Part shown: in pieces, positions 22,674 through 40,174 of the stretch
How positions within the stretch are numbered: position 1 is the first letter of the stretch
Layout: every line of letters starts with the position of its first letter
Origin: Methanobacteriota archaeon
GTDB taxonomy: Archaea > Halobacteriota > Bog-38 > Methanoflorentales > Methanoflorentaceae
Assembly: GCA_963720465.1 (NCBI GenBank)
Contig: OY970393.1
Coordinates: forward strand, 2,048,001-2,112,000
Direction: 5' to 3'
DNA: 64,000 nt
Made by a program: the position numbers and the translations under genes
The notes under the pieces: generated by a model
Told to the model about the DNA's origin: nothing
Seen by the model: the letters and a program-made list of their open reading frames with translations, nothing else
Database searches by the model: none

Positions 22674-23864
22674 CTAGCGAAGCTCCTCGTACACCTCGTC
22701 GAGGTTTATCCCAGCAATCGTCTTTTCGCTATAGAACAGCTTCTTCTCTCGAACGGCGGTCTGCAGTTGTGCATTCGAAATGCCGTTTTGCAGCGCCAGG
22801 TACGCTTCCATGAATGCCGCGAGGTCATCAGCTGCTTTGACCAGTTCTCCGTCGACCGGGTTGTAGCGGTCACGGTTGTACGACGCGGTTATCTCATCAG
22901 AGGTTGTGTGGCGGACCTGCCCGTCAATCGTCACCTTTGAGACAAACTCATCTTCAGTAAACATCCGCATCTCGGGCTGCCACGCCTTTGGAATGAGCTC
23001 TGGCGCGTAAATTCTACGCTCCATCTCTTCCCGTTCAAAGTCCTTCAAGAAGCGATCCAGGCCCGTGGCCGCCCTCTTGACGGGGCTGATAATGTCCTTG
23101 GTGAGGACTTCGGGCAGGTCGTGGAACAGCCCGGTGAAGTAGTTGTTCACACAGCGCTTGGGACACGCGCCGATCTCAAGTGAGAACAGGTACGAGAGGA
23201 TCGCCACGATGAGCATGTGGCCGAGCACCGAGGTCCGCGGGACTCGGAAGAGCTGCCCCCATCGCACTTGAAATCGCAGGCGCCCGCACAAATCGACAAA
23301 GCTCCGATAGGTTGGGAAAAGGGCGAGGTAGCGCAGTCCTTCGACGTCAGCGAGCGCCTCCTGGCGCCTCTGCAATCCCCGCCGGATCTCGTCAATCTCG
23401 TAATCGCCCGTATTTTCGCGTTCGATGATGTCAAACTCCCACTTGGTCGCGTAGAAGTGGGCCGCGTCGAGCACTTTCCTGCTGGCGGTGTTCGAAGGGT
23501 GGAACAGATATGTTTCAAACCGTTTGTCGAGCCCGTTTAGATCGGCTATAAGGGGCTGAAAGCGCGCGTAGACCTCGCTCTTTAGCTCATTATACGTCTC
23601 GTCGTTTGCCTTGATCTTCTCGAAGATCTGGGGCTTCAAGTCGGTGAGGGTGAGGCGCTCGAAGTACTCGAACAAGCCACCCTCGATGACCTCGATCCAG
23701 CTGAAGTCGCTGCTGTGTTCGGCGAACTTGCCGAGCACGTAGGTGATGGCCATCTTGTGTCCCTGCTTGTCGAGTTCGGTCAACGGGACGGGACACAGCT
23801 TGTCGTTCCAGCGGCGCATTTCAGCAGCTTGAAAAAGCTCGATGAGGAGGGCTTTGCCTACCAT
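22674..23864 (-). CDS. Tandem HD-domain (YfbR-like) phosphohydrolase
   Basis: MRRWND, ELDKQGHK, RLRFQVRW, TSVLGH, GLFHDLPEVLTKDIISPVK, ADDL. Confidence 0.85.
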   Translation of the reverse strand: MVGKALLIELFQAAEMRRWNDKLCPVPLTELDKQGHKMAITYVLGKFAEHSSDFSWIEVIEGGLFEYFERLTLTDLKPQIFEKIKANDETYNELKSEVYARFQPLIADLNGLDKRFETYLFHPSNTASRKVLDAAHFYATKWEFDIIERENTGDYEIDEIRRGLQRRQEALADVEGLRYLALFPTYRSFVDLCGRLRFQVRWGQLFRVPRTSVLGHMLIVAILSYLFSLEIGACPKRCVNNYFTGLFHDLPEVLTKDIISPVKRAATGLDRFLKDFEREEMERRIYAPELIPKAWQPEMRMFTEDEFVSKVTIDGQVRHTTSDEITASYNRDRYNPVDGELVKAADDLAAFMEAYLALQNGISNAQLQTAVREKKLFYSEKTIAGINLDEVYEELR

Positions 23865-24924
23865 GCTAGCTTGTTTCAATCACTCCTGTTAAAAGCTTTC
23901 ACCTGTGAAGTGATTGGTGAGTGCTCATTTTTGAAATCGCCGTATGACTATAGAGGGATTTTGATGGAGGCAAACGACGTGCACCTTACGGCCTATAAGG
24001 ACCTGCCAAACTGGCGGTGGGAGTTCGTGAGTTCATCTGCGTCACCTAATGTCGTTTGCTGCCGGTTGACTTTGAGGGATTGGAGGAAATAGGTGAGCTG
24101 TGCGTGAAGAGCCTGGAAGAACGCTTGGAGCTCGTGGAGACGTTGCCGAAGTACGAATCGATTACCGTTGACGAAGCATCTTTGGATGAGACCTAGTGTC
24201 GTTAGAGATTAGCTGGAATCATTGGTCATAAACGTTTAATTGGGACTGCGGTTCATCTTCGACAAGGTCTCGCATTAATTTTGGCGCACGAAGACTCTGA
24301 GAGTCTGCGAGTTGGGAAGTTGCCGCAAAGAAAACTGCCAACACGCTTGATAGCAGCAGCTTTCCCGCTCACGTGAGATCATAGCCGCGATGCGTTTGCA
24401 GAACAATGCCTACTCTTAGAGATCTCGAAGTCGCGCGTAGAGTCGTGGTCCTGCCATAAGAGATCCTCTTTAGGCACTTTAACATCAATTATCCGGTCTG
24501 CTGTCAACTTGAGCTGATTGTGTTAGTCTGTCGCGACGTTGACGAAATCTTTAGCATAGGAGCAGATGCCCCCTTTTCAGGGGCATCAACGTCAATGGCC
24601 ACGTCCTTACGTTTTCAAAAACGTTGAGCTACGATTTTTCTCAGGTTAAAAGATCAAATGCTGAGCATCAAGGGTTCCGACTCGGATCCCGCCTTTAGTT
24701 TTCGATTTAGGCGCGAGCAGGGCATAATGAATGGAGGCGAAAGGTTTACGGTCAGACGAACATGACTTTTATAGCTTAGTTAGCCGAGAAGCTCAACCCC
24801 CCTTGATTCTGACAAGTTTATGAATAAGCTCACTTTTTCACAAATATTAGATATTTAGATATAATAAGAAAAGTTAAATGAAAATAATACGATTGTTTGA
24901 CGGCATATTCGCGAGGTCTAAGCG

Positions 24925-26766
24925 ATGATTGAAGCTCTTGCGACATTAGGTCAGTATTCTATAGCTCAGCGGGAAGGCACTGACGAAAGCCATTTGCAAA
25001 CTTTGGTTGATGATCCTAAAACCTCAACAAGGTACAAGCACGTTTTATTTGTTACATTCGATGCGGCCAAAGACTACAGCTTTACCGGAGTCGAGTATGA
25101 GGAGTACTCAAAAGAGAAGATCTGCGAGTATCTCTACAAGAAAGGTGCTCCCAACGGGCCGGATGTCACGCCGACGGCAAGGGTTGCCGCAAAAATCGAA
25201 AAAACCTTTGATAATAAGATCGCGAAATGGTTTGAAAACGCATTGGATGACGATCTCGTGCGGCAGGATCAAACAAATTACGCATTCTTGCTCAAGCTCT
25301 CCAATGCTATAGAGCGTGAGCATGATCGCATTCTTGCTGAGCTCACAGCAAAGTTTGATGCTATCGAGAAAAAAGACCGCGTCATCATTTCGATCCTCAT
25401 CGAGAACGACCCGATCGGGAGGTACGTCGGGGATTTTCCGATATTCAGACAGATCGTTTCGAAAAAAGGCGTAGAGGCCTACTATAAGAGGTACGGCTTC
25501 GAGTCGGTAGCCTATGACCAAACGTGTTCCGTCTGCAAAACGGTCACTCCAGAGGTGTATGGATTTGCCAGCACTTTTGCATTCTACAACGTCGACAAGC
25601 CCGGATTCGTCAGCAGCGGGTTCGACCAATCAAAAGCTTGGAAAAATTACCCCGTCTGCGAGCGCTGCGCGTTGATTTTGGAAGAAGGTCGAAAGTTCCT
25701 CGAGCGCGATTTTGCCTTTCGGATGTACAATTTGAACTATTTCATCATTCCAAAGCCTTTGTTTGACCGCGATAGCGGCGAGGTGATCAAAAAATTCCTT
25801 TATTATAAGCGTGATTTTCGGTCACTGAGCCCCAAGAACAAGCGCATGGTGGACGCGCGAGAGGACGACATCCTGAACTATCTGTCCGAGCAGCATAACT
25901 TTTTTAACAACAACTTCCTGTTTTATGAAAAATCCAACGCCGCCTTTCGAATCCTCCTCTACATCGAAGACGTCCTCCCGTCTCACATCCGACGAATGTT
26001 TGAGGCCAAGGCGGTCGTTGACGAAAAATCTATGTTCAAAGCTGCAGGCAAGGACGGCGAGAGCTTGCTCTTCGACTTCCGGGCAGTGAACCACTTCTTC
26101 TGGGGTTCAGATAAGCGGAAGCACTTCTTAGAAGTTATTGATAGCATTTTTACCTCGAGGCAGGTTGACTATTCATTCTTGATTCGGTCGATAATCAACA
26201 AGATCCGCGACGACTACGCTCGAGGCAACTATACAAAATATTCAACGCTGCGCGGCATACAGCTCCTACTCTTTTTGCACGAGATGGATCTGCTGAAGCG
26301 ATATGAAGGTGATGGGCCAATGAAAGAAACGACAATTTTTGATGTGGACGATTCGAATCCCGTCGTCGACGCCGTGAATACATTGTTCGACGAATTTCCC
26401 GACTTCTTTGATACCAACGCAAAACGGGCGGTTTTCTTAGAAGGAGTCCTGACTGAGAAGCTGTTGCGTGTGCAGTACATGGAAAGAGGCGGAGCCACCC
26501 CTTTTAAGTCAAAGCTTAACTCTCTCAATCTGGATGAGCGTCTCCTTAAGAAACTGCTGCCGCAAATCCAAAACAAGTTTCAGGAATATGGAAAGGACTA
26601 CTATCGCACGCTGGAGAAGCTGCTAGCCGAGCATATGGTAAAAGCAGGCACAAACTGGAGGATGACTCCGGATGAGATAAGCTTCTACTTTGTCATGGGA
26701 ATGAACCTCTCAGACTACGTTAAAGGCAGCCCTGCTGCATCTGTGGAAGGTGATACAGATGGATGA
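24925..26766 (+). CDS. cas8b: Type I-B Cas8b (Csh1/TM1802-like)
   Basis: CSVC...FYNVDKPGF...NYPVCERC and FLEGVL...VQ...TPF..KL motifs. First gene of the cas operon. Confidence 0.92.
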   Translation: MIEALATLGQYSIAQREGTDESHLQTLVDDPKTSTRYKHVLFVTFDAAKDYSFTGVEYEEYSKEKICEYLYKKGAPNGPDVTPTARVAAKIEKTFDNKIAKWFENALDDDLVRQDQTNYAFLLKLSNAIEREHDRILAELTAKFDAIEKKDRVIISILIENDPIGRYVGDFPIFRQIVSKKGVEAYYKRYGFESVAYDQTCSVCKTVTPEVYGFASTFAFYNVDKPGFVSSGFDQSKAWKNYPVCERCALILEEGRKFLERDFAFRMYNLNYFIIPKPLFDRDSGEVIKKFLYYKRDFRSLSPKNKRMVDAREDDILNYLSEQHNFFNNNFLFYEKSNAAFRILLYIEDVLPSHIRRMFEAKAVVDEKSMFKAAGKDGESLLFDFRAVNHFFWGSDKRKHFLEVIDSIFTSRQVDYSFLIRSIINKIRDDYARGNYTKYSTLRGIQLLLFLHEMDLLKRYEGDGPMKETTIFDVDDSNPVVDAVNTLFDEFPDFFDTNAKRAVFLEGVLTEKLLRVQYMERGGATPFKSKLNSLNLDERLLKKLLPQIQNKFQEYGKDYYRTLEKLLAEHMVKAGTNWRMTPDEISFYFVMGMNLSDYVKGSPAASVEGDTDG

Positions 26767-27754
26767 TTACGTAAAGAACAGGTCTGAAATTATTTTTTTG
26801 TACGACGTCAAAGACGCAAACCCGAATGGCGATCCGCTTGACGAGAACCGTCCGCGGATCGACGAAGAGACTGGCATTAATCTGGTCACCGACGTCCGGC
26901 TTAAGCGGACGATCAGGGACTACTTGCACAACTTTAAGGACGAAGAAATATTCGTCAGGGAAATTGAGTATGGTGACGGTTACATCCAGGATGCAAAGCA
27001 GCGCGCTGAGGATTTCCTCCCCGCCGACACGAGCATGCCGGCAGGTCTTAATGAAAAGAAGAAGGTAATCGACGAGGGTGTGTTGCGCGCATGCATCGAC
27101 GTGCGGCTGTTTGGGGCCACGATACCGATCAGCTCGACAAAATCGACGAAAGGCGCTGACGAAGAAAAAAAGGGAGCGATCACCCACACGGGTCCAGTGC
27201 AGTTCAAAATCGGCCGGTCAATGCACAAAGTATACGTTAAGCATTTTAGGGGCACGGGGGCGTTTGCGTCCGGCAAAGGCGCGACACAAAAGACGTTCAG
27301 GGAAGAGGACTTTCTGCCCTATTCACTGATCAACTTCTATGGCATCATCAACGAGAACGTGGCGCCTGAGACGCGGCTCACCGAGCGCGATGTCAACGCG
27401 CTGGTGGACGCTATGTGGAACGGCACCAAGAACCTCATCTCACGGTCGAAAGCAGGGCAAGTCCCGCGGCTGCTCGTAAAAGTGAATTACCGGACCCGTA
27501 ACTACCACATCGGCGACCTCAACTCTGGCATCAAGCTTGTTTCAGAGCTGGACGATGAGGTAATACGTGACATCTCGGAAGTACAGCTTGACGTCGACGA
27601 GTTTATAGCCGCGTTGCTGCGTCACAAAGAGACCATTGAAAGTATACAGCATAAGGTCGATCCGAAAGTTAGGCTGCTGCACAATGGCGCTGAAATGACA
27701 TTCGAGGCGTGCCTGGATCAAGCCGGCGTTGCTCACTCTGCGCTCAGCTTCTGA
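26759..27754 (+). CDS. cas7: Type I-B Cas7 (Csh2)
   Basis: NPNGDPLDENRPR, VTDVRLKRTIRDY, DVRLFGAT, TGPVQF. Confidence 0.96.
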   Translation: MDDYVKNRSEIIFLYDVKDANPNGDPLDENRPRIDEETGINLVTDVRLKRTIRDYLHNFKDEEIFVREIEYGDGYIQDAKQRAEDFLPADTSMPAGLNEKKKVIDEGVLRACIDVRLFGATIPISSTKSTKGADEEKKGAITHTGPVQFKIGRSMHKVYVKHFRGTGAFASGKGATQKTFREEDFLPYSLINFYGIINENVAPETRLTERDVNALVDAMWNGTKNLISRSKAGQVPRLLVKVNYRTRNYHIGDLNSGIKLVSELDDEVIRDISEVQLDVDEFIAALLRHKETIESIQHKVDPKVRLLHNGAEMTFEACLDQAGVAHSALSF

Positions 27755-27762
27755 GGGACGGC

Positions 27763-28467
27763 ATGCAGCCCGTGATCGCATTTGATCTCTGGGGAGACTA
27801 CGCACATTTTCGCAAGTACTTCACAACAACGTCACCCCTCACCTTCTTACTACCCCCTCGAACGGTGTTAATGGGGCTCATAGGGGCTGTCTGCGGGCTC
27901 AAAAAAGAGGAGTACATTAAAACCTTCGCAGGCGACCAGGCACGATTAGCCGTCTCGATATGCCTTCCAGCGAGGAAGGTCAGGTTGGTAGAAAACTTCA
28001 TTGACACTAAAACTGCGCTCCTTATGGGCAAAATCAAGAACCGCACCCAGATAAGGCTTGAGCTCGTTAAAAACCCGCGGTATCGCGTTTACGTGAGCCT
28101 GAAAAACAAGGCACTGCACGATCTGTTGAAGGAGATGCTCGTCGCCCACAAATGTGTCTATACGCCGTATCTTGGAATCAGCGAACTCATCGCAAATTTT
28201 TCCTACGTCGGCGAGTACGCTGCGGAAGCGCGAGCGCCAGACAAACACGTGAATATCGTCACCGCGCTGAACGCTGACCTCATTCGGGACCTCACCATTG
28301 AGGATAATAAAGAGTACTTCTCAGAGGTGATGCCGTGCGACATGGCGGAAGACCGATCTGTCACGCGGTATTCTAAGATCGTGTACGAACGCAACGGGCA
28401 GGCAGTCAAAGCCCACGTTACCGAATGTCTGGAACTTGAAAAAGGCGAATTCATTGCGTTCATGTGA
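27763..28467 (+). CDS. cas5: Type I-B Cas5
   Basis: FDLWGDYAHFRK, PPRTVLMGLIGAVCG, YTPYLG. Confidence 0.95.
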   Translation: MQPVIAFDLWGDYAHFRKYFTTTSPLTFLLPPRTVLMGLIGAVCGLKKEEYIKTFAGDQARLAVSICLPARKVRLVENFIDTKTALLMGKIKNRTQIRLELVKNPRYRVYVSLKNKALHDLLKEMLVAHKCVYTPYLGISELIANFSYVGEYAAEARAPDKHVNIVTALNADLIRDLTIEDNKEYFSEVMPCDMAEDRSVTRYSKIVYERNGQAVKAHVTECLELEKGEFIAFM

Positions 28468-30847
28468 ACTCCTCTCCCATCCTAAAAAAACGCTGCTTGA
28501 ACACCTCGGCCAGGTCTCGCAAACGTGTCGCGAGACTGCCGCCTCAAAAGAAATCCGCTACAGCGATCTCGGGCTGACGCGTGACTTATTCACGCGCTTT
28601 ATGGAAACAGTCGGAGCGGCACACGACTTTGGCAAGTCGACACGCTATTTTCAAGAGTATCTGCGCGCCGCCGATGATCCGCGCTATACAAAACCCGCAG
28701 AAGCAAATCACGGCGTCATATCAGCGATATTCACCTACCACGCCGTAAAAACGGTCATCGGCGGCACGGATGGCGACGTCGCCGCTTATCTCCCGTACAT
28801 CGGCTTTCTCATCGTGAAGCGGCACCATGGGAATCTTAAGAACGCTAAGGATGAGATTCTGGACGCGGTTCATCCCGACAGCATCGATCGTGTAACAAAC
28901 CAAATCAACAGCATCGACCACGACAGGGTGCAAGGTCTCTACGACGCACTCGTTCTAGGCTTACGCGCCGATGTTTTTTTGCAGGAGCACCGCGCCGTCA
29001 TAAGCCAGCTCAACGAGGATAAGTTCGTTTTTGACGGATGGTTGGGTGCGTACCCGACTCCCGCCGTCTGCATTCTCATGTTGATGAGCTATTCTATACT
29101 AATCAGCGCCGACAAAGCAGAGGCATCGGGCACGAGCGTGCAGCGCTGCGAAGAGGCGCTCGCCGAAGACCTCGTCGAGGTTTATCGGCAGGCGAAGGGG
29201 TATGACGAGGCTGTAACCGACATTGACGGCATGAGAAACGCCATCTACGCGGCGGTATCGGCGTCGATCACTTCGGTGGACCTGGCGACGAAGATCATGT
29301 CCATCACAGCGCCAACCGGCACTGGTAAGACGCTCACTGCGCTCTCGGCAGCGCTGAAGCTCCGCCATATGGTGCACGCTGCGCACGGTTATTATCCGCG
29401 CATCATCTACTGTTTGCCGTTTCTGTCGATCATCGATCAAAACTTCGGCGTTCTTGAAGACGTGTTAACCTGCAATGACATTCCCATAACGAACGACGTG
29501 TTATTGAAACATCACCACCTAGCGGAGGCCTTCTACACGACGCGCGACAATGAATTTGAATCGGATCGGGCCCAGTTCTTGATCGAGGGCTGGGATTCTG
29601 AGATCATCGTCACCACTTTTGTACAGTTCTTTCACTCACTCTTTACGAACAAGAACCGCTCGCTCCGGAAGTTTCACAACATAGTTAACTCGATCATCAT
29701 CTTGGACGAGGTGCAGGCGATCCCTCATAAATATTGGAAGCTCCTGAACGATTTTCTTCGGACCCTCGGGCACATTTTCGCAACATATATCATCTTGGTA
29801 ACTGCAACCCAGCCGCTCATTTTTGAGGGCGACGTAGTCGAGTTGCTGACTGATCGATCTGCATATTTTGAAAAGCTCAATCGTGTGCATCTTTATCCGC
29901 ACGTCAGCGCTTCGTGTACTTTTGCCGAGTTTACCGACACAGTGCAAGCAGATATTGCGCAACACCCAACGAGCAGCTTCCTGATCGTGTTAAACACGAT
30001 CAACTGCGCTCGCGAGATGTATGCGAGCTTGCAGGAGTACGATGACGGTGACACCGTGTACTACTACCTAAGCACGCATGTCACACCGCACGAACGGTTC
30101 CAGCGAATACGCGACATTAAGCGCGGCATAAAACGTGCAGTTATCGTGAGCACCCAACTTGTCGAGGCCGGCGTGGACATCGATGTCGACGTCGTCTACC
30201 GGGACTTCGCGCCACTAGACTCCATCAACCAAGTGAGTGGCCGGTGCAACAGGAACGATCGGAGTGACACACGCGGTATTGTAAACTTATACGTCGTGAA
30301 TGACAAAAAAAAGGACGTTTACAGATACATTTATTCAGGATTGCCTGTAGACAAGACGCGCGAGGTTTTTAAAGCCTACGAAGACGGCGCAACAGCGCAA
30401 CGTGGAATACAGGAAACCTATTTTTTGGACCTCATAAACCGCTATTTCGCAAAGATCAAAGGGGGGCTTTCTGAAGACGAGTCGAAAGAGCTGCTTCAGT
30501 CCATCAAAAAGCTGGAGTTCGACGACGTATCCCACGAGTTTAGGCTGATCGACGAAAAAGGATATGAGAAGTTCGACCTCTTCGTTGAACTCAACGATCA
30601 TGCTGTTAAGACGTGGGAGCGCTACATGCGCGTTCGAAGCGTGGAAAACCCGTTTGAGCGGCGGAGGGCTTTCCTACAAATCAAGCGTGAGTTTTATGAC
30701 TACGTCATTTCCGTACCCGCTCGTGAGGTTTCGAACGACGTTAGGGATTTCGCGTACATAGGAAAGCTTCCTTATGAGCGCCTCGACACGTACTACGATA
30801 AGGCGACGGGCTTTAAACCTCGGTCACACGGAGTTATGATCCTGTGA
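28436..30847 (+). CDS. cas3: Cas3 HD nuclease-helicase
   Basis: LLEHL, HDFGK, HHG, SADK, APTGTGKT, LDEVQ, TAT, STQLVEAGVDID, QVSGRCNR. Confidence 0.97.
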   Translation: MKKANSLRSCELLSHPKKTLLEHLGQVSQTCRETAASKEIRYSDLGLTRDLFTRFMETVGAAHDFGKSTRYFQEYLRAADDPRYTKPAEANHGVISAIFTYHAVKTVIGGTDGDVAAYLPYIGFLIVKRHHGNLKNAKDEILDAVHPDSIDRVTNQINSIDHDRVQGLYDALVLGLRADVFLQEHRAVISQLNEDKFVFDGWLGAYPTPAVCILMLMSYSILISADKAEASGTSVQRCEEALAEDLVEVYRQAKGYDEAVTDIDGMRNAIYAAVSASITSVDLATKIMSITAPTGTGKTLTALSAALKLRHMVHAAHGYYPRIIYCLPFLSIIDQNFGVLEDVLTCNDIPITNDVLLKHHHLAEAFYTTRDNEFESDRAQFLIEGWDSEIIVTTFVQFFHSLFTNKNRSLRKFHNIVNSIIILDEVQAIPHKYWKLLNDFLRTLGHIFATYIILVTATQPLIFEGDVVELLTDRSAYFEKLNRVHLYPHVSASCTFAEFTDTVQADIAQHPTSSFLIVLNTINCAREMYASLQEYDDGDTVYYYLSTHVTPHERFQRIRDIKRGIKRAVIVSTQLVEAGVDIDVDVVYRDFAPLDSINQVSGRCNRNDRSDTRGIVNLYVVNDKKKDVYRYIYSGLPVDKTREVFKAYEDGATAQRGIQETYFLDLINRYFAKIKGGLSEDESKELLQSIKKLEFDDVSHEFRLIDEKGYEKFDLFVELNDHAVKTWERYMRVRSVENPFERRRAFLQIKREFYDYVISVPAREVSNDVRDFAYIGKLPYERLDTYYDKATGFKPRSHGVMIL

Positions 30848-31500
30848 AATTGAGAGTGTTTACGCTCCGAGTGCTTACCGACGCTCCGATTAACGCGACT
30901 GCGGCACAGTTACGGGGGTTTTTTGCCGCTAAATTCAACGATTTTCAGTTGTTGCACCATCACAACGCGGACAAGGTGATCTACGATTACCCCCGAGTGC
31001 AGTACAAAGTCGTTGATGGTCGGCATCTCGTCCTCGGCATCGATGAGGGAGCAGATGTGCTCGAGGAGATCTATGATCGATACGCGTCACTCCGTCTCGG
31101 GTCAACGACCTACAACGTCATCGGTCAGGAGTTTGGCGTCAAGGAGTGTGAGCTCTCTATCTCCGACGAATATTGTGCGTATACCTTTAAAACACCGTGG
31201 CTAGCGTTAAACCAGACTAACTACTTGAGGTTCTATGCGTGTAAGAACAGGACGGAACGATTCGAACTGTTGTCGCGAACGCTCATCGGTAACCTTCTCT
31301 CGATATCGAAATCCTTCGGGTATACCGTACCGCAGCGCATTGAAGCGGTCGTCCATGTCAACGCCGTAAAAACACGGCTCAAGAGCGTGAGTATTATGGC
31401 GTTCCGTGGAAGCTTCACGACGAACTTTGAGATTCCGGAGCTGTTAGGAGTCGGCAAGTCGGTATCGAGAGGTTATGGGGCGGTACAGAAATGCAACTAG
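30844..31500 (+). CDS. cas6: Cas6b crRNA endoribonuclease
   Basis: LRGFF, YPRVQYK, TPWLALN, C-terminal GVGKSVSRGYG loop. Confidence 0.9.
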   Translation: MKLRVFTLRVLTDAPINATAAQLRGFFAAKFNDFQLLHHHNADKVIYDYPRVQYKVVDGRHLVLGIDEGADVLEEIYDRYASLRLGSTTYNVIGQEFGVKECELSISDEYCAYTFKTPWLALNQTNYLRFYACKNRTERFELLSRTLIGNLLSISKSFGYTVPQRIEAVVHVNAVKTRLKSVSIMAFRGSFTTNFEIPELLGVGKSVSRGYGAVQKCN

Positions 31501-32471
31501 TCCTCAACACGCGTGGCGCCTTCTTGAAGAAGAAGGGTGATGGCTTTGTGATAAAAAATGGGGAGAAATCATACGAGGTAGCGGCACGCAAGGTAGAAAG
31601 CATTCTGATAACGACGTCCGCGACTATCACCACTGATGCCATCAAGTGTGCGATGGAGAACAACATAGACGTTGTGTTTTTAGACCACTTTGGCGACCCC
31701 TTCGGCAGGGTGTGGCACTGTAAACTGGGAAGCACAACCCTCATCAGACGTCGGCAGCTCGAAACGTCCATGAAACCGCGTGGGTTACGGATGGCGCGCG
31801 GCTGGGCCCTCACCAAGATTGAAAACCAAGCGCGGTATCTCAAAGAGCTCAAGAAGAACCACCCCCCGATACAGTCGGACTTACATAAGTATATAGAGCA
31901 GCTCGAGCAATTGAGCGAGAAGATGGCCTCCGTTGGAGGGACGATTGATAAAAATCGCGGCAAAATCATGGGCCTCGAGGGATCGGCGTCGCGACTGTAC
32001 TTTGGGGCATTGGCACGCGTACTGCCTGAAAAGTGGACGTTTCACGGAAGAAGTCGCGACCCGGCCGCAGACGGATTTAATTGCATGTTAAACTACGGAT
32101 ACGGGGTTCTCTACTCAATGGTTGAAAAAGGGATTATTGTCGCCGGACTAGATCCGTATATCGGGTTCATTCATGTTGATAACTACAACAAGAAGTCATT
32201 TGTCTTTGATTTGATAGAACTCTATAGGACGTATGTCGATCAGACGGTTGTCCCGCTATTTACACGAAAGATGGTGAAGGAGGACATGTTCGACACCGTT
32301 CCTGGGGGGTTTACGCTCAACGCCGACGGCAAAACGCTGCTCTTGCAGCTGTTAAACGATGCCTTTGAAAGGTCGATCAATCACCGGGGCAGGAACGTAA
32401 AAATACGGAACATCATTCAACTTGATTGCCACCGGATCGCAAATGATCTGCTTTTGCCTGGGGATGAGTAA
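31491..32471 (+). CDS. cas1: Cas1 integrase
   Basis: GLEGSASRLYF, NCMLNYGYGVLY, GLDPYIGFIH, FDLIELYR. Confidence 0.97.
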   Translation: MQLVLNTRGAFLKKKGDGFVIKNGEKSYEVAARKVESILITTSATITTDAIKCAMENNIDVVFLDHFGDPFGRVWHCKLGSTTLIRRRQLETSMKPRGLRMARGWALTKIENQARYLKELKKNHPPIQSDLHKYIEQLEQLSEKMASVGGTIDKNRGKIMGLEGSASRLYFGALARVLPEKWTFHGRSRDPAADGFNCMLNYGYGVLYSMVEKGIIVAGLDPYIGFIHVDNYNKKSFVFDLIELYRTYVDQTVVPLFTRKMVKEDMFDTVPGGFTLNADGKTLLLQLLNDAFERSINHRGRNVKIRNIIQLDCHRIANDLLLPGDE

Positions 32472-32764
32472 TGTCCATCGTGTGGGTCGTGTACGACATC
32501 GCTGAGAACAAAGTACGAACAAAGGTCAGCAATGCCTGTATAAGCACCGGCTTGTATCGTGTGCAAAAGAGCGTTTTTCTTGGAACCTTAAGCGCAAATG
32601 AACGCGATGAATTGGCGCTTAAATGCGAGGAACTGATCGATGCAGACGTTGATTCAGTCTACATCTTTCCCATGGATCAACAGTCTTTCAAGAGCGTGAA
32701 AATGCTTGGTCAGGCATTTAGCAAAGACCTTGTGAGTGATAAAGTGCGCGCTCTCTTCGTTTAA
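32471..32764 (+). CDS. cas2: Cas2
   Basis: VVYDI, RVQKSVFLG, DSVYIFP. Confidence 0.96.
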   Translation: MSIVWVVYDIAENKVRTKVSNACISTGLYRVQKSVFLGTLSANERDELALKCEELIDADVDSVYIFPMDQQSFKSVKMLGQAFSKDLVSDKVRALFV

Positions 32765-32774
32765 GGGTTTGTTC

Positions 32775-33377
32775 ATGTCATACTGTGATAATGAAGAGAG
32801 GGCAATTGTCACCATTACTGATGTACTAGAATACACCTTCTGCCCGCGCTTCATCTTCTATATGCGTTGTCTTAATATCCCCCAGCACGAGGAGAAACGG
32901 TTCAAGGTGCGAAAAGGCCGTGAGGTCCACAAAACACGCGCTATGACAAATAAGGGGTACTTGCGACACAAGATAAACGTCGTAAAAAAAGAGAGCGAAG
33001 TGTTGTTAACGTCACAGCGACATCGGATTAAGGGTAAGGTAGACGAAGTGCTGTTTTTAGCGGACGGAACCGCTGCACCGCTTGAATACAAATTTGCGGA
33101 GTTCAAGCGAACCGTGTGGTCCACGCATGCACTGCAACTGATACTTCAAGCTTTGTTAATCGAGGAGAACTACGGTACAACGGTCAAGAGTGGATTTGTG
33201 TGTTACACGCGGAGTAACGATGTTGTCAAAAGGGTTGATATAACTGATCGTGATTATGATCGCGCTTTGCTGGTTATTAGCGACATCCTTAAAATGATAG
33301 ATATAGGATATTATCCAGCTAACATGAGACCAAATAAGCGCTGTTCCGACTGTTGCTATAGAAACGTATGTGCTTAG
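32775..33377 (+). CDS. cas4: Cas4 (RecB-like nuclease, 4Fe-4S)
   Basis: FCPR, G.EVH, GKVDEV, EYK, C-terminal CSDCCYRNVC. The QxxxY position reads QLILQ. Confidence 0.93.
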   Translation: MSYCDNEERAIVTITDVLEYTFCPRFIFYMRCLNIPQHEEKRFKVRKGREVHKTRAMTNKGYLRHKINVVKKESEVLLTSQRHRIKGKVDEVLFLADGTAAPLEYKFAEFKRTVWSTHALQLILQALLIEENYGTTVKSGFVCYTRSNDVVKRVDITDRDYDRALLVISDILKMIDIGYYPANMRPNKRCSDCCYRNVCA

Positions 33378-33484
33378 TTTTCTGAAGTATTTAAAGACAC
33401 CAATAGAAATGGCATCAGAACGTTCAGTACCAAGAGGGGGTAGGATATCAACAATATTCGACAAAAGGAGTATTTTCGGCAGCT
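33378..33484 (+). promoter_or_regulatory. CRISPR leader
   Basis: Non-coding 107 bp between the cas4 stop and repeat 1, with a TATA-like TTTAAA near 33390. Confidence 0.75.
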
Positions 33485-36400
33485 CTTACAGAGCTACATC
33501 CAATAAAACAAGGATTGAAACTTGGGGGTCTAAAGATGGTACACGCGTGGTTAAGCCTTACAGAGCTACATCCAATAAAACAAGGATTGAAACCGACTCA
33601 GGAAGCGCAGTATAAAGAGGACCATATAGCCTTACAGAGCTACATCCAATAAAACAAGGATTGAAACGTCGAGAGCCTGATAAGTTTGCTATAGTCGTTT
33701 TGTTCTTACAGAGCTACATCCAATAAAACAAGGATTGAAACTAAATACGTAGGCGACGAAAAATCGCAGGGAGGCCACTTACAGAGCTACATCCAATAAA
33801 ACAAGGATTGAAACCCCAATAAGGACGTATCGCCGCGGTGTCAAAAGACGCGCTTACCGTTACATTGCCGTTCGGCCCAGTTACCACGGGAACGGGGTAG
33901 TCGAGAGGGTTTATTCCTATATTGTGGTGAATGACAAGCTTACAGAGCTACATCCAATAAAACAAGGATTGAAACTTCGAACTCATCTGGGTCTACACGC
34001 CGCATCCAACTTACAGAGCTACATCCAATAAAACAAGGATTGAAACACCAACAGTCCGATTGTGGCAAGTTTCACCCTCGGCGGTACCAAGACGGTTACG
34101 AGCGGAACCTTTACGCTAACGTTCGCAACCTTACAGAGCTACATCCAATAAAACAAGGATTGAAACCTGATATTGTGTGAGTCCCTAGGGACAACCCGCT
34201 ACTTACAGAGCTACATCCAATAAAACAAGGATTGAAACCTGGTGAGCCGAGCATCAATGAGTTTACAGCGATCTGCTTACAGAGCTACATCCAATAAAAC
34301 AAGGATTGAAACAAGGCGATCACACTCGTGAAATTGAATTTAGAAAACCTTACAGAGCTACATCCAATAAAACAAGGATTGAAACTAAGTTGCTTCGGTG
34401 AATGGTGTTTTTGTGATATACTTACAGAGCTACATCCAATAAAACAAGGATTGAAACCTAGCGCAGAAGGACGATGGGGACACTGACATGCTCTTACAGA
34501 GCTACATCCAATAAAACAAGGATTGAAACCTTTGTGCTGTTCGTTCCTACATTAAAAGTCCCCGACGCTTACAGAGCTACATCCAATAAAACAAGGATTG
34601 AAACCGACGTTGCGTTCCAGCTCCAGCGCGTCATCTCAGACTTACAGAGCTACATCCAATAAAACAAGGATTGAAACTTCCTCCCTTAAGTTTGGCACGT
34701 TCAATGCCTTCTTACAGAGCTACATCCAATAAAACAAGGATTGAAACTCGTTGAACGACACCGCCATGACGCCCGAGCCGAGGATGCTTACAGAGCTACA
34801 TCCAATAAAACAAGGATTGAAACCACATTCTATATCCCCCAACTCTCCTTTCCTAGTGCCTTACAGAGCTACATCCAATAAAACAAGGATTGAAACTCAT
34901 CAGGCTTAATATGTATAACGAACCGGATTTGGCTTACAGAGCTACATCCAATAAAACAAGGATTGAAACCCAAGAGTCAACCATCAGTCTACGACGTGCA
35001 CGTGAACTTACAGAGCTACATCCAATAAAACAAGGATTGAAACTCAATAACTGGGACCAGATCACCGGAGGAGGCCCTCTTACAGAGCTACATCCAATAA
35101 AACAAGGATTGAAACTTTGAGTGGGTTCAGCATTTCCTACGCCCAACCAAAACCTTACAGAGCTACATCCAATAAAACAAGGATTGAAACATCCCGACGA
35201 TACGACCGACCGTATCGTGAACCCCGCTTACAGAGCTACATCCAATAAAACAAGGATTGAAACACCGAGAGCGCACGATACGCGAGCTTAAAGAGACTTA
35301 CAGAGCTACATCCAATAAAACAAGGATTGAAACTCGGAGTAAGCAAGCGACGATCAGCGACTGCTAGTTGTCTTACAGAGCTACATCCAATAAAACAAGG
35401 ATTGAAACACGGATGCGGATTCGATGGGTATTGAGGTCATACTGCTTACAGAGCTACATCCAATAAAACAAGGATTGAAACTGCTCCAACACCAGACCAT
35501 TCACGCACAGCTGGAACTTACAGAGCTACATCCAATAAAACAAGGATTGAAACTACAAAGACGACCGAGAGCGATCCGAAGCAAGATCAACTTACAGAGC
35601 TACATCCAATAAAACAAGGATTGAAACTCGTTTCTGCCATCTTTAGTATCGCTTGACACGCGCTTCTTACAGAGCTACATCCAATAAAACAAGGATTGAA
35701 ACCTTGGATCATAGTTTTGGTTTTGTTTGTTTTATTTGACCTTACAGAGCTACATCCAATAAAACAAGGATTGAAACTCAAACGGGCAACACCACATCCC
35801 GCCAGAGATGGTATCTTACAGAGCTACATCCAATAAAACAAGGATTGAAACGCCACATTGGTTTAAAGTTCGCGCTGAATAACAAACTTACAGAGCTACA
35901 TCCAATAAAACAAGGATTGAAACGAGTTGGGATCTACAGCTTGACGCCAACAGTTCCAACTTACAGAGCTACATCCAATAAAACAAGGATTGAAACCGGG
36001 TGGGTGCCAGCGATACCCTCAGCACATCCAGCTTACAGAGCTACATCCAATAAAACAAGGATTGAAACGCCACATGATTCATGACTGTCGGAAGTGTCGG
36101 CTTTATCTTACAGAGCTACATCCAATAAAACAAGGATTGAAACTGACACCGCTCAGGCAGCCCGCGTCCCCGTCACTGGCTTACAGAGCTACATCCAATA
36201 AAACAAGGATTGAAACCAATTAAAAGCAGTTAAGACGTGCGCGCAGTGCTCCTTACAGAGCTACATCCAATAAAACAAGGATTGAAACTTGTAGTAACGG
36301 GCTCTTCTTCTGGGGAGATACCTCTTACAGAGCTACATCCAATAAAACAAGGATTGAAACATTCAGAACTAAAGAGGCATAGGATATGTCAAAAGACTTA

Positions 36401-37915
36401 CAGAGCTACATCCAATAAAACAAGGATTGAAACTGAACGATTCCGCTTCCTGCGCTCCGTTTTGCCATCTTACAGAGCTACATCCAATAAAACAAGGATT
36501 GAAACTTGAGGGTGGTACGGCTTTTGTAAACTTCAGCGCGACTTACAGAGCTACATCCAATAAAACAAGGATTGAAACCCAACCCTCGACATGAGGGAAC
36601 TAGACTGCCCTCTTACAGAGCTACATCCAATAAAACAAGGATTGAAACTGTTGCCCGTGGTTTCGGTGCCCGCGTTAAACACCTTACAGAGCTACATCCA
36701 ATAAAACAAGGATTGAAACTTAGTAAAATCGGTCGCTCCGCTCAAGGCGCAAGGCTTACAGAGCTACATCCAATAAAACAAGGATTGAAACTTTTTACAG
36801 TTGGAGAGAAGATAATACAGGTACTCGACCTTACAGAGCTACATCCAATAAAACAAGGATTGAAACCGGAACCTACGCCACGGCAGGCTGGGCAGGCTGC
36901 AACTTACAGAGCTACATCCAATAAAACAAGGATTGAAACTATTTTAGGGATAATCTATACACACGCACGGTTTAAACTTACAGAGCTACATCCAATAAAA
37001 CAAGGATTGAAACTCTATGGGCTTTCACGTATGGTGTCGCACTGCAAGACTTACAGAGCTACATCCAATAAAACAAGGATTGAAACCCAACACACCTGGC
37101 AAATCGGTCTGAATATAAACCAACTTACAGAGCTACATCCAATAAAACAAGGATTGAAACCTGTGACCTGGAAATAATAATTGGTGTTCAACTGCAGGCT
37201 TACAGAGCTACATCCAATAAAACAAGGATTGAAACAACATGAAGTTAGCGTATGATATCGGCGCTCTGATCTTACAGAGCTACATCCAATAAAACAAGGA
37301 TTGAAACGAAAATAACAGCGGCAACCTCGTGTTCGTGGAGTTCCTTACAGAGCTACATCCAATAAAACAAGGATTGAAACACTTTTCCAGGGTTTCAGGT
37401 CCCTGCTCGACGGCGACTTACAGAGCTACATCCAATAAAACAAGGATTGAAACAGTTGTTTGTGCCATAATCTGCTCCTTTTTTAACTTACAGAGCTACA
37501 TCCAATAAAACAAGGATTGAAACCTGCTATCGGTTTAGCGTGCTGGGTCGCTGAAGATCTTACAGAGCTACATCCAATAAAACAAGGATTGAAACTCTAG
37601 CAAAACCAAGAGGCAAAAATGAGTGATAAACTTACAGAGCTACATCCAATAAAACAAGGATTGAAACCCCATACCGCTTCCACCAGTGGCACTGTAGTGC
37701 AACAAGGCACCCACAGAGTTATATCCCACTCGCTTACAGAGCTACATCCAATAAAACAAGGATTGAAACACCACACCTCCCTTGCCGCCCTGCTTCGAAA
37801 GCACGGCTTACAGAGCTACATCCAATAAAACAAGGATTGAAACTTTATGAAGTGAACGATGCAAAGGCTTGGAATAGCCTTACAGAGCTACATCCAATAA
37901 AACAAGGATTGAAAC
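33485..37915 (+). CRISPR. CRISPR array: 59 identical 37-bp repeats (CTTACAGAGCTACATCCAATAAAACAAGGATTGAAAC), 58 spacers
   Basis: Counted by hand. Spacers are 33-39 bp except no. 5 (124 bp), no. 7 (83 bp) and no. 56 (65 bp). The repeat ends in the ATTGAAAC handle. Confidence 0.99.
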
Positions 37916-38120: not shown

Positions 38121-38723
38121 CTAAATCAAAATGAGTTTTCCGGCTAGTGTGAGCTCGTAGCCCTCAGAGGTCTCGTTGATAAGTCCCTGTTCCTTCAAGT
38201 CGCGCAGGTGCGTGTATGTCATCGTCCGACTGATATCCAGCTCGTCTTTGAGTACTTCAATGTCGCTGACGCCCTTGTTGATCATCTTAAGGAGATCGAG
38301 CTTCGTCTTATGAAGGCTCCACGAGATCTTGGGTATAGGAAGGACCTGATGGGCCTCCTCCGTCACGTAAAAGACTTCGCTGACCTTGTCGATGTTCTTG
38401 AACACCCCGAGCAACGCGCTGATTGATCCTGTCTTGCGCCCGCCGGTTATATTAACAAACACGCGGTTGCCCTTGTCGTGTTCGCTGTTGATAAGGTAGG
38501 TCATAAGGTCAACGAGGCCGAGGATGTCGTACCAGTTCTGCACCTCCTTCACTTCGATGTCGACGATGGCGCCGAAGGTGTTTTGCATGAGGCTCTCGAT
38601 CTTCTTGGCCTCCGAGGGCGGGTCCGTTTCGCGGATGAGAATGAGCTTTTTTACGTTGAACGTCTGCATACCGATGATAAGCGGTTCAGCTTCAAACCCG
38701 AGGGTGGCGATCATTACGTTCAT
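38121..38723 (-). CDS. csa3: Csa3-like CARF + winged-HTH transcriptional regulator
   Basis: IATLGF N-terminal strand, VNITGGRK CARF motif, C-terminal wHTH (ISRTMTYTHLRDLKEQGLI...YELTLAG). Confidence 0.82.
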   Translation of the reverse strand: MNVMIATLGFEAEPLIIGMQTFNVKKLILIRETDPPSEAKKIESLMQNTFGAIVDIEVKEVQNWYDILGLVDLMTYLINSEHDKGNRVFVNITGGRKTGSISALLGVFKNIDKVSEVFYVTEEAHQVLPIPKISWSLHKTKLDLLKMINKGVSDIEVLKDELDISRTMTYTHLRDLKEQGLINETSEGYELTLAGKLILI

Positions 38724-38971: not shown

Positions 38972-39490
38972 TCACGACAGGGTTGTTACTACCTGATTTA
39001 TTCCGTCGCTGTACGTTAAGGTCGTCGCAGTCGCGCTCTGCGGTACTTCGAACGCTATCTGTCCTGACACCTTCTCCCCGGGATTCGTATTTGACACTAC
39101 ACTAAGTGCATTGTTGCCGAGGAACGACGAAGAGGTTATTTCGTACACCGTTCCGCCTGACGTCGTCAGTTTGAAATCGTATGGGTTGCCGAGGTCCCAA
39201 TTTTTCTGGTTGAGATTTGTTACTGTGACGTCGAAGATGAGGAACTTGTTGCCCGGTTGTGGCGTGCTTACGACGTAGCCGCTCCCTATTTGGCTTGCCG
39301 TTTGCTGCGAATTGATCGTTACGGCGACGCCTGCGTTACCGCTGCCACCGCCTGACGAATTCTGCGTCGTGGTGTTCGTCGTGCAGCCAGCGGTTGCGAC
39401 TAAAACGAGCGAACCAATAAATAATAGCGGTAGCGCCTTTTTCAGTGGCATGTTAATATGGCGCTTCATCATTTTTGCTACTGGATTCAT
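38972..39490 (-). CDS. DUF4352-like lipoprotein
   Basis: LVATAGC lipobox, PQPGNKFLIFDVTVTN, PGEKVSGQIAFEVP. Confidence 0.82.
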   Translation of the reverse strand: MNPVAKMMKRHINMPLKKALPLLFIGSLVLVATAGCTTNTTTQNSSGGGSGNAGVAVTINSQQTASQIGSGYVVSTPQPGNKFLIFDVTVTNLNQKNWDLGNPYDFKLTTSGGTVYEITSSSFLGNNALSVVSNTNPGEKVSGQIAFEVPQSATATTLTYSDGINQVVTTLS

Positions 39491-39513
39491 TTTGAATTTC
39501 ACCTCCGAGCACA

Positions 39514-39870
39514 TCACGTGTTTTGTCCAGCGATCTGAGCGCCAGCAACGCGCTCCCTTTTTTGCATCAAGATGATGATGCCGCCAACGAGGAACAGTAT
39601 GAACGTGAGGACACCGAAAAGACTGATCGATATGACCACTCCAAGCGCCCCGACAATCATGAGAACTGCTCCGATGATTTTTCGCTGTTCGAGCACACCG
39701 CCAGCGATTCCGACTATCGAGAAGATGAAGGCTCCCGCAGCGTTCGTATAGAGCGATGACGCTCCCGTCGCGTTGAATGCCTGGCCAATTCCTCCGATGA
39801 GGACTACGAGTACGGCGGCGAGGATTCCAAAAATCCCTCCTATTATTCCGAGCCAAAATGCTTTGCCCAC
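39514..39870 (-). CDS. DUF4064-like four-TM membrane protein
   Basis: FWLGIIGGIFG...SIVGIAGG...GAVLMIVGA. GGAGG RBS and GTG start. Confidence 0.75.
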   Translation of the reverse strand: MGKAFWLGIIGGIFGILAAVLVVLIGGIGQAFNATGASSLYTNAAGAFIFSIVGIAGGVLEQRKIIGAVLMIVGALGVVISISLFGVLTFILFLVGGIIILMQKRERVAGAQIAGQNT

Positions 39871-40174
39871 GTGTTTGCCTCCTTTGGGTGCACCCGCGCA
39901 TCTGTCCTTACCTGATTCCTGCAGAATGTTGACGTCGCACGCGAGTGTAAATTTTGTATATTTACAATAAAGTCTTTTAATATATTAAACTAACTAAATT
40001 TAATAATCATAAAAAAGTATTAATCTATTGTAATTGAAACAGTTATAAATATTAAAACTTTAAAATAAGGCTATAAACATAACTCATTGTAACTCTCAAC
40101 GCTACAGGCGTATCTGCAAGATGAGCTAGGATAGCCTACCACAAAAATGCCATAGCTACTAATGGACTAATAAA

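Follow-up and report, generated by a model that had tools for sequence, protein, structure and literature searches.

Can a type I-B adaptation machinery with all of its usual parts lay down, as one spacer, a piece of foreign DNA far longer than those it ordinarily stores? The question is raised by a CRISPR array in the genome of a Methanobacteriota archaeon of the family Methanoflorentaceae (assembly GCA_963720465.1), within a window of 64,000 nt (positions 2,048,001 to 2,112,000 of contig OY970393.1) to which all coordinates below refer. By repeat mapping and Rfam the array (33485..37915, + strand) consists of 59 identical 37-nt repeats and 58 spacers, and 55 of the 58 spacers have an ordinary length of 33–39 nt. 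Spacer 5 (33815..33938, + strand) is 124 nt long, as the original prediction made from the sequence alone had it, and is flanked by perfect repeats at 33778–33814 and 33939–33975 (0 mismatches in both). It thus has the intact repeats on either side that mark a spacer, and departs from the narrow, ruler-set length that is another mark of one. Two more outliers, absent from that prediction, are spacer 7 (34047..34129, + strand, 83 nt), the second oversized spacer, and spacer 56 (37668..37732, + strand), which measures 65 nt. We suggest that spacer 5 is a single collinear capture of one oversized fragment, which is the best reading of the evidence, unproven and evenly poised between right and wrong, and that spacer 7 probably arose in the same way. 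A single oversized acquisition had been proposed before; that conclusion still stands as the best one, while the reasons first given for it (an open reading frame, an Ig-like fold and an analogy with Cas4 loss) are weak, as described below.

The spacer had also been called leader-proximal and recent, and this is backed by the strand assigned by Rfam, by the position of the cas genes, and by a leader of 107 nt between cas4 and repeat 1 (33378..33484, + strand), which is conserved in two sister loci, L009 and L023. Because the leader lies at the cas4 end, spacer 5 is the fifth-youngest unit of the array. All 59 repeats are recognised by Rfam as CRISPR-DR7 on the + strand (46 bits against a gathering score of 37), and all 59 end, on this same strand of the cas genes, in ATTGAAAC, which we take to be the 8-nt 5' handle that a type I-B repeat leaves on the CRISPR RNA (crRNA). 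Two of the three outliers are among the seven youngest units (hypergeometric p ~0.04, for a comparison chosen after seeing the data). Such clustering at the young end would fit a recent episode of relaxed length control, or a later loss of such units.

Outliers of this kind in databases are usually put down to degenerate repeats, transposons or errors, and these explanations, tested here, fail for two spacers of this one array. When the repeat was aligned locally to the + and - strands, no hidden copy emerged in spacer 5 (p 0.20 and 0.57, respectively) and no remnant in spacer 7 (p 0.64 and 0.34). Fitting of the whole 37-nt repeat in register within spacer 5 gave a p of 0.13, so that spacer 5 does not qualify as an interval with a degenerate repeat hidden in it. 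A search of 33378–34200 with the Rfam covariance model at E ≤ 1 returned the eight known repeats only, with no degenerate copy among them. Length is informative as well. In a regular array with spacers of 33–39 nt and repeats of 37 nt, a single deletion can produce an interval of at most 78 nt without a repeat remnant, or of about 115 nt with one. At 124 nt spacer 5 is beyond the reach of one deletion, since the ceiling is ~115 nt, and it falls outside the class of deletion-fusion units, which do not exceed that ceiling and contain an in-register repeat piece when longer than 78 nt. Spacer 7, at 83 nt, would require a remnant if it were a deletion product, and none was seen. Spacer 56 is more likely a rearranged unit, because it contains a repeat-like 14-mer, ACAGAGTTATATCC (37713..37726, + strand), with 12/14 identity to repeat positions 4–17 (local alignment p = 0.013, 2,000 shuffles), and because its length is within the reach of one deletion.

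There is one stretch in spacer 5 that does recall a repeat. The 13-mer CTTACCGTTACAT (33853..33865, + strand), 38 nt into the spacer, had been noted earlier, with its position given correctly, as weakly resembling the repeat start. Its likeness to repeat positions 1–15 turned out to be stronger than stated in a register-aware test, in which these 15 positions were fitted 33–39 nt from the spacer start, with a length change of at most 2 nt, and compared with 1,500 random 124-mers of the genome (p = 0.0027, uncorrected); for the first eight repeat positions alone the p was 0.025. The covariance-model search at E ≤ 1 did not find it. Spacer 5 could accordingly be pictured as a composite of a 38-nt spacer (33815–33852), an altered and truncated repeat start (33853–33865) and a 73-nt tail, produced by a deletion or by an aberrant integration in which most of one repeat was lost; in a variant of this scenario, a normal spacer received an insertion later. 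The look-alike has the right register for such an origin, deletion-fusion units of the same layout are known in the related arrays L015 and L059, and spacer 56 of the same array has its own repeat-like 14-mer. At the same time, the remnant would have some four altered letters among 15 (about two substitutions plus a gap of 2 nt), although it lies towards the young end of an array that shows 0 changes in its 2,183 repeat positions, and with 16 tests corrected for, the p rises to ~0.04. In front of the last 33–39 nt of spacer 5 no in-register repeat end is detected (p 0.69–0.99). With its 73 nt the tail remains double the ordinary length, and therefore an oversized piece is needed even for a composite. 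Moreover, the same letters at 33853 also encode GNVTVSAS, the best-matching core of a propeller-like motif discussed below. We conclude that the 13-mer is more likely due to chance than a remnant, though it keeps alive a composite origin, which we consider unlikely while giving it real weight.

What a deletion-fusion unit looks like can be seen in related arrays. A first comparison set comprised 18 loci with 626 spacers and related 37-nt repeats ending in GGATTGAAAC; it contained 1 outlier (66 nt) among 626, compared to 3 of 58 in the present array (Fisher p = 0.002, with the arrays being kin and not independent). A second set of 20 loci supplied 1,133 further intervals, 61 of which duplicate an array already counted, while 58 intervals of one locus were over-measured by 13 nt, two repeat variants having shortened the consensus, and two more, of 248 and 269 nt, separate one array from the next. 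Of the genuine outliers of this second set, one is of 49 nt and the others measure 52, 66 and 79 nt; the two sets together amount to ~1,700 spacers. In all four outliers of 52–79 nt from both sets, reading of the printed sequences by eye identified a piece of the own repeat in the expected register: 37 nt followed by the first 11 nt of the repeat and another 18 nt in L015, 36 nt followed by the first 16 nt of the repeat in L059, 37 nt followed by the last 7 nt of the repeat and 35 nt in L064, and repeat-like pieces inside the outlier of L068. Judged by this layout, all four are deletion-fusion units, and none is longer than 79 nt. They resemble the long spacers described here in being outlier intervals of type I-B arrays with 37-nt repeats ending in GGATTGAAAC. 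However, they are confined to 52–79 nt and carry 7–16 exact letters of their own repeat in register, whereas spacer 5 has only an imperfect 13-mer and spacer 7 has none. Spacer 56, with its 65 nt and repeat-like 14-mer, may be of the deletion-fusion kind.

Sister arrays with the identical repeat have no spacer in common with this array. In two metagenome contigs the exact 37-nt repeat of the array occurs once, in the last position (L024 316–352 and L025 2367–2403, reverse-complement coordinates), the remaining repeats there following another variant, GTTTCAGAGAGTCCCTCGATAAAATGAGGATTGAAAC; arrays may have recombined, or the terminal repeat may be ancestral.

An interval of this size might also not be a spacer at all. 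According to PMC4524480, most "spacers" of at least 100 nt in arrays of E. coli, P. aeruginosa and S. thermophilus resemble transposons, and by this precedent spacer 5 could be an element that has settled in the array and is either mobile or has a function of its own, for instance a gene for a small RNA, a miniature transposon or a regulatory site. Its sequence offers little to such a view. Spacer 5 occurs once in the genome, where the next best match covers 14 nt, and it has neither terminal inverted repeats nor an internal direct or inverted repeat of at least 7 nt; it thus lacks the extra copies and inverted termini by which, along with a transposase, an insertion sequence or miniature transposon would be known. 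It folds no better than shuffled sequences (z-scores +0.4 and +0.8), has no Rfam match at E ≤ 1, shows no excess of promoter or terminator content, and gives no match beyond chance in phage and plasmid collections. An element other than a spacer is hardly credible here. No similarity was found among the 58 spacers when these were compared with each other.

Could the 124-nt unit exist in no cell, having been made by the merging of reads from a mixed population? The genome apparently comes from an uncultured lineage whose relatives are mostly incomplete genomes, and any part of spacer 5 was found in just one small public run, a freshwater sediment metagenome (hereafter X1), which was the only run found in the run index, with 0.14 of the sampled spacer words, and which leaves 33815–33874 uncovered. 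On the other hand, misjoins in arrays fall within the identical repeats, where units are gained or lost whole and no long unique sequence comes into being. The assembly is a single contig of 2,313,764 bp with neither gaps nor Ns, and there are three separate outliers, each of which would need an error of its own. Further to that, a 103-nt contig of run X1, aligned to 33790–33960, is 100% identical over 33875–33960, repeat junction included, and continues past the end. Therefore, at least the last 64 nt of spacer 5, which are non-repeat sequence, abut the next repeat in a second data set. Two other runs, X2 and X3, contributed no matching sequence, which weighs neither way. An artefact of assembly or consensus is very unlikely. 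Taken together, the perfect flanks, the lack of a hidden repeat, a length past the ceiling of one deletion, the absence of mobile or RNA features and the junction in X1 lead us to regard spacer 5 as probably genuine.

If spacer 5 is real, the next question is whether it is one piece. The original prediction had pointed out that its reverse complement is open over 41 codons, and had taken this to favour a single acquisition over fused spacers. The translation is exact and free of stops; openness of this sort, however, could well be due to chance. Two of the six frames of spacer 5 lack a stop, and of 5,000 124-mers drawn at random from the genome 57% have two or more such frames and 89% have one or more. 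Simulation of contiguous fragments versus three-piece chimeras gave likelihood ratios of just 1.12 (at least one open frame) and 1.33 (at least two), and the open frame therefore says almost nothing about contiguity. The Ig-like beta-sandwich surface domain proposed for the 41-aa peptide likewise found no support in Pfam, a protein word search or the ESM Atlas: Pfam at E ≤ 10 lists only Phage_F, at a noise-level E of 0.23, a word-indexed search of 5.8 billion proteins with the -1 frame peptide had no match, and the best look-alike in the ESM Atlas scores 0.80, which is noise level.

A different resemblance came from a phmmer search of 1.84 billion representative proteins, where 42 proteins matched the peptide at E ≤ 1e-3 (best 7e-9, identities of 31–55%), nearly all of them with 3–6 matched stretches. 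Beta-propeller families of the Vgb_lyase/NHL type account for 13 of the 16 best matches, the others being WD40, fn3 and SdrD_B repeat proteins. The alignments converge on one blade-like motif (ld.P..vv.GPdGNl.Vs) spanning residues ~8–38 of the -1 frame peptide and straddling position 33853. As a control, we took 62 open reading frames from 30 propeller loci picked by Pfam family and not by the peptide; against these the peptide scored 10.9 bits, a value that 3 of 400 open peptides drawn at random from the genome attained, as did 6 of 400 shuffles, and the +2 frame scored 2.1. The control thus hints, weakly (p ~0.01), at a real -1 frame and at one beta-propeller blade of an NHL/Vgb-lyase/WD40-like protein to which the residues on either side of 33853 may belong. 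In that the blade resemblance straddles 33853, it lends weak support to the collinearity of spacer 5.

The original prediction had asked for a collinear 124-nt protospacer with a protospacer-adjacent motif (PAM), and none appeared in searches of the own genome or of viral, plasmid and metagenome sequences. Specifically, no source for spacer 5 was found in the own genome (blastn-short and tblastx), in INPHARED phages or in PLSDB plasmids; searches of the latter two with the whole array gave no phage match, and the plasmid matches were only repeat-driven, to arrays of Runella. In IMG/VR no exact match was found to words from any of the three long spacers (31 and 22 nt from spacer 5, and 24 nt each from spacers 7 and 56), and a 24-mer of spacer 5 had no match in JGI metagenome contigs. 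Spacers 5 and 7 were unmatched in 24 genomes of the host family, and the 41-aa peptide found no source in 401 genomes of the phylum (best per-genome E 0.009). A Microviridae capsid gene was considered as a source and rejected: a 24-nt blastn match (E 4) and the Pfam match to Phage_F (E 0.23) disagree in position and frame, the nucleotide match falling near codon 455 of the capsid gene and in a frame other than that of the peptide, the Pfam match covering profile positions 95–121. The other 55 spacers had no match in the phage and plasmid collections either. Because the ordinary spacers of the array also match nothing, the blanks for the long ones weigh neither way; the mobile elements of this lineage seem simply to be missing from the collections.

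Several observations have to be set against a single capture. The 13-mer at 33853 sits exactly where a repeat would start after a 38-nt spacer, with the probabilities given above (0.0027, or ~0.04 when corrected for 16 tests). None of the 56 spacers in sister arrays with the identical repeat is long (4 in L009 and 52 in one metagenome contig), and the Cas4 encoded next to the array looks intact. Given this Cas4 and the ordinary spacers of the sister arrays, nothing seen in the sequence explains why length control should have been relaxed. Even outright loss of Cas4 has a much smaller effect elsewhere: in Pyrococcus, as reported in PMC7293040, double deletion of cas4 results in mean spacers of 43–44 bp instead of 37 bp, a shift of ~7 bp. 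Run X1 has no coverage of 33815–33874 and may come from the very sample behind the genome assembly. No protospacer was found for any part of spacers 5, 7 or 56 in any of the collections tried. Finally, the phmmer E-values are inflated, as they sum 3–6 similar repeats of at most ~11 bits each, and the Pfam models of WD40 and NHL fail to recognise the peptide, which leaves it outside the curated families.

The analogy with Cas4 loss, which the original prediction had drawn, falls short on these grounds. In a 15-sequence alignment Cas4 of this locus keeps 31 of 31 invariant columns, among them four Cys, D91-E92, Y106-K107 and Q122, so that no defect of Cas4 is seen that would explain the long spacers; in Pyrococcus, moreover, the loss gives mean spacers of 43–44 bp and not of 124. 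The P. furiosus strains with both cas4 genes deleted are of the same subtype, and PMC7293040 and PMC6698737 describe in them an integration by Cas1-Cas2 that remains accurate at the repeat while length control is relaxed. Unlike in those strains, the spacers here are of 83 and 124 nt, and Cas4 is present with its conserved residues.

How, then, might a long fragment enter the array? Fragments released by Cas3 degradation are 30–100 nt long. What the analysis shows is the anatomy of the unit, an intact cas set and the failure of trivial causes; what we infer is that the insert came in as a single fragment, itself long (for example a Cas3 degradation product formed during primed adaptation), which escaped trimming or the length ruler. 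Cas1-Cas2(-Cas4) would join the two 3' ends of this one long, untrimmed foreign fragment to the borders of the leader-proximal repeat, and gap repair would duplicate the repeat as usual, leaving an insert of 124 nt (or 83 nt) between two perfect repeats. Cleavage of the transcript by Cas6b would then yield a crRNA of ~161 nt, composed of the 8-nt ATTGAAAC 5' handle, 124 nt of spacer and a 29-nt 3' handle. Cas7 subunits are spaced at steps of 6 nt along a guide, and the 88 extra nt of spacer 5 are not a multiple of this step. Our tentative proposal, which we hold with somewhat less confidence than the capture of spacer 5 itself, is that a Cas4-equipped type I-B integrase bypasses its length ruler in vivo and stores foreign gene fragments of 83 to 124 bp as single spacers, having done so at least twice recently in one array.

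Long spacers have been attributed to degenerate repeats (PMC4869251) and to transposon insertion (PMC4524480), and such intervals are similar to ours in being outliers between two recognisable repeats. They differ in that no degenerate repeat was detected in spacers 5 and 7, and in that spacer 5 has neither a second copy nor transposon features. In an engineered type I-E Cascade, spacers of up to 57 nt were loaded and formed full R-loops, as PMC6859484 states; those were designed lengths of at most 57 nt in another subtype, and a natural length of 124 nt is far beyond them. The literature searched, with supplements lying outside it, contained no account of spacers that exceed the normal size two- to three-fold in nature and lie between perfect repeats.

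The machinery next to the array is complete. Directly upstream of it and on the same strand lies a cas operon (24925–33377) in the order cas8b-cas7-cas5-cas3-cas6b-cas1-cas2-cas4, and from these gene assignments the locus is classed as type I-B CRISPR-Cas with full effector and adaptation sets. Cas8b, Cas7, Cas5, Cas3 and Cas6b, the effector set of this subtype, all exceed curated cut-offs. The predicted effector large subunit, cas8b of the TM1802/Csh1 family, occupies 24925..26766 (+; NCBIfam TIGR02556 E 8e-81, Pfam PF09484 E 2e-157; TIGR02591 also matches) and is followed by cas7 (Csh2; 26750..27754, +; TIGR02590 E 3.5e-89) and cas5 (Cas5h/Cas5b; 27709..28467, +; TIGR02592 E 3e-44). Next come cas3, a putative fusion of HD nuclease and helicase (28436..30847, +; TIGR01587 E 2e-35, TIGR01596 E 3.5e-18), and cas6b, encoding the predicted repeat-cutting RNase (30844..31500, +; Pfam Cas6b_N E 7e-29, Cas6b_C E 8e-39). 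The adaptation genes adjoin the array, which begins 108 nt past cas4, and their models are all above cut-off: the integrase gene cas1 (31491..32471, +; TIGR00287 E 1.7e-87), cas2 (32471..32764, +; TIGR01573 E 9e-15) and the apparently intact cas4 (32736..33377, +; TIGR00372 E 6e-41). This cas1 gives the sole Cas1 match genome-wide, and the whole 2.31 Mb hold one array; with a single Cas1 and a single array, no second adaptation system is therefore involved. The closest Cas1 in the genome collection (90% identity) accompanies an identical repeat and comes from a metagenome-assembled genome labelled uncultured Actinomycetota.

Among all 58 spacers the first base is T in 25, C in 18, A in 10 and G in 5, a pyrimidine in 43 of 58, which may reflect processing on the PAM side; in the three long spacers the first base is C, A and C. 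Downstream of the array a csa3-like regulator with CARF and HTH domains is predicted on the opposite strand (38121..38723, -; TIGR01884 E 4.7e-19), followed by a 309-aa protein with a DUF4352 domain (38972–39901, -). About 1 kb upstream of cas8b there is a 401-aa protein with an HD_3/YfbR-like 5'-deoxynucleotidase domain (22674–23879, -). Marker-gene completeness of the genome is 91% despite its single gap-free contig, and the 23 relatives in the family are mostly fragmentary, at 59–91%; this looks like a poorly sampled, uncultured lineage that is ill-fitted by the marker sets.

Spacer length is regarded as a fixed property of each Cas1-Cas2 complex. If the single captures are true, having Cas4 does not keep this ruler from being bypassed in nature, and natural arrays can hold memories the size of a gene fragment and yield crRNAs of ~160 nt, which bears on how prespacers are measured, on the use of very long guides by type I effectors, and on integrases that record longer DNA. 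If these spacers are rearranged units instead, they would be examples of an array being damaged in a way that leaves behind no clean piece of a repeat. Either way, the locus names a concrete cas1-cas2-cas4 set beside which such spacers occur.

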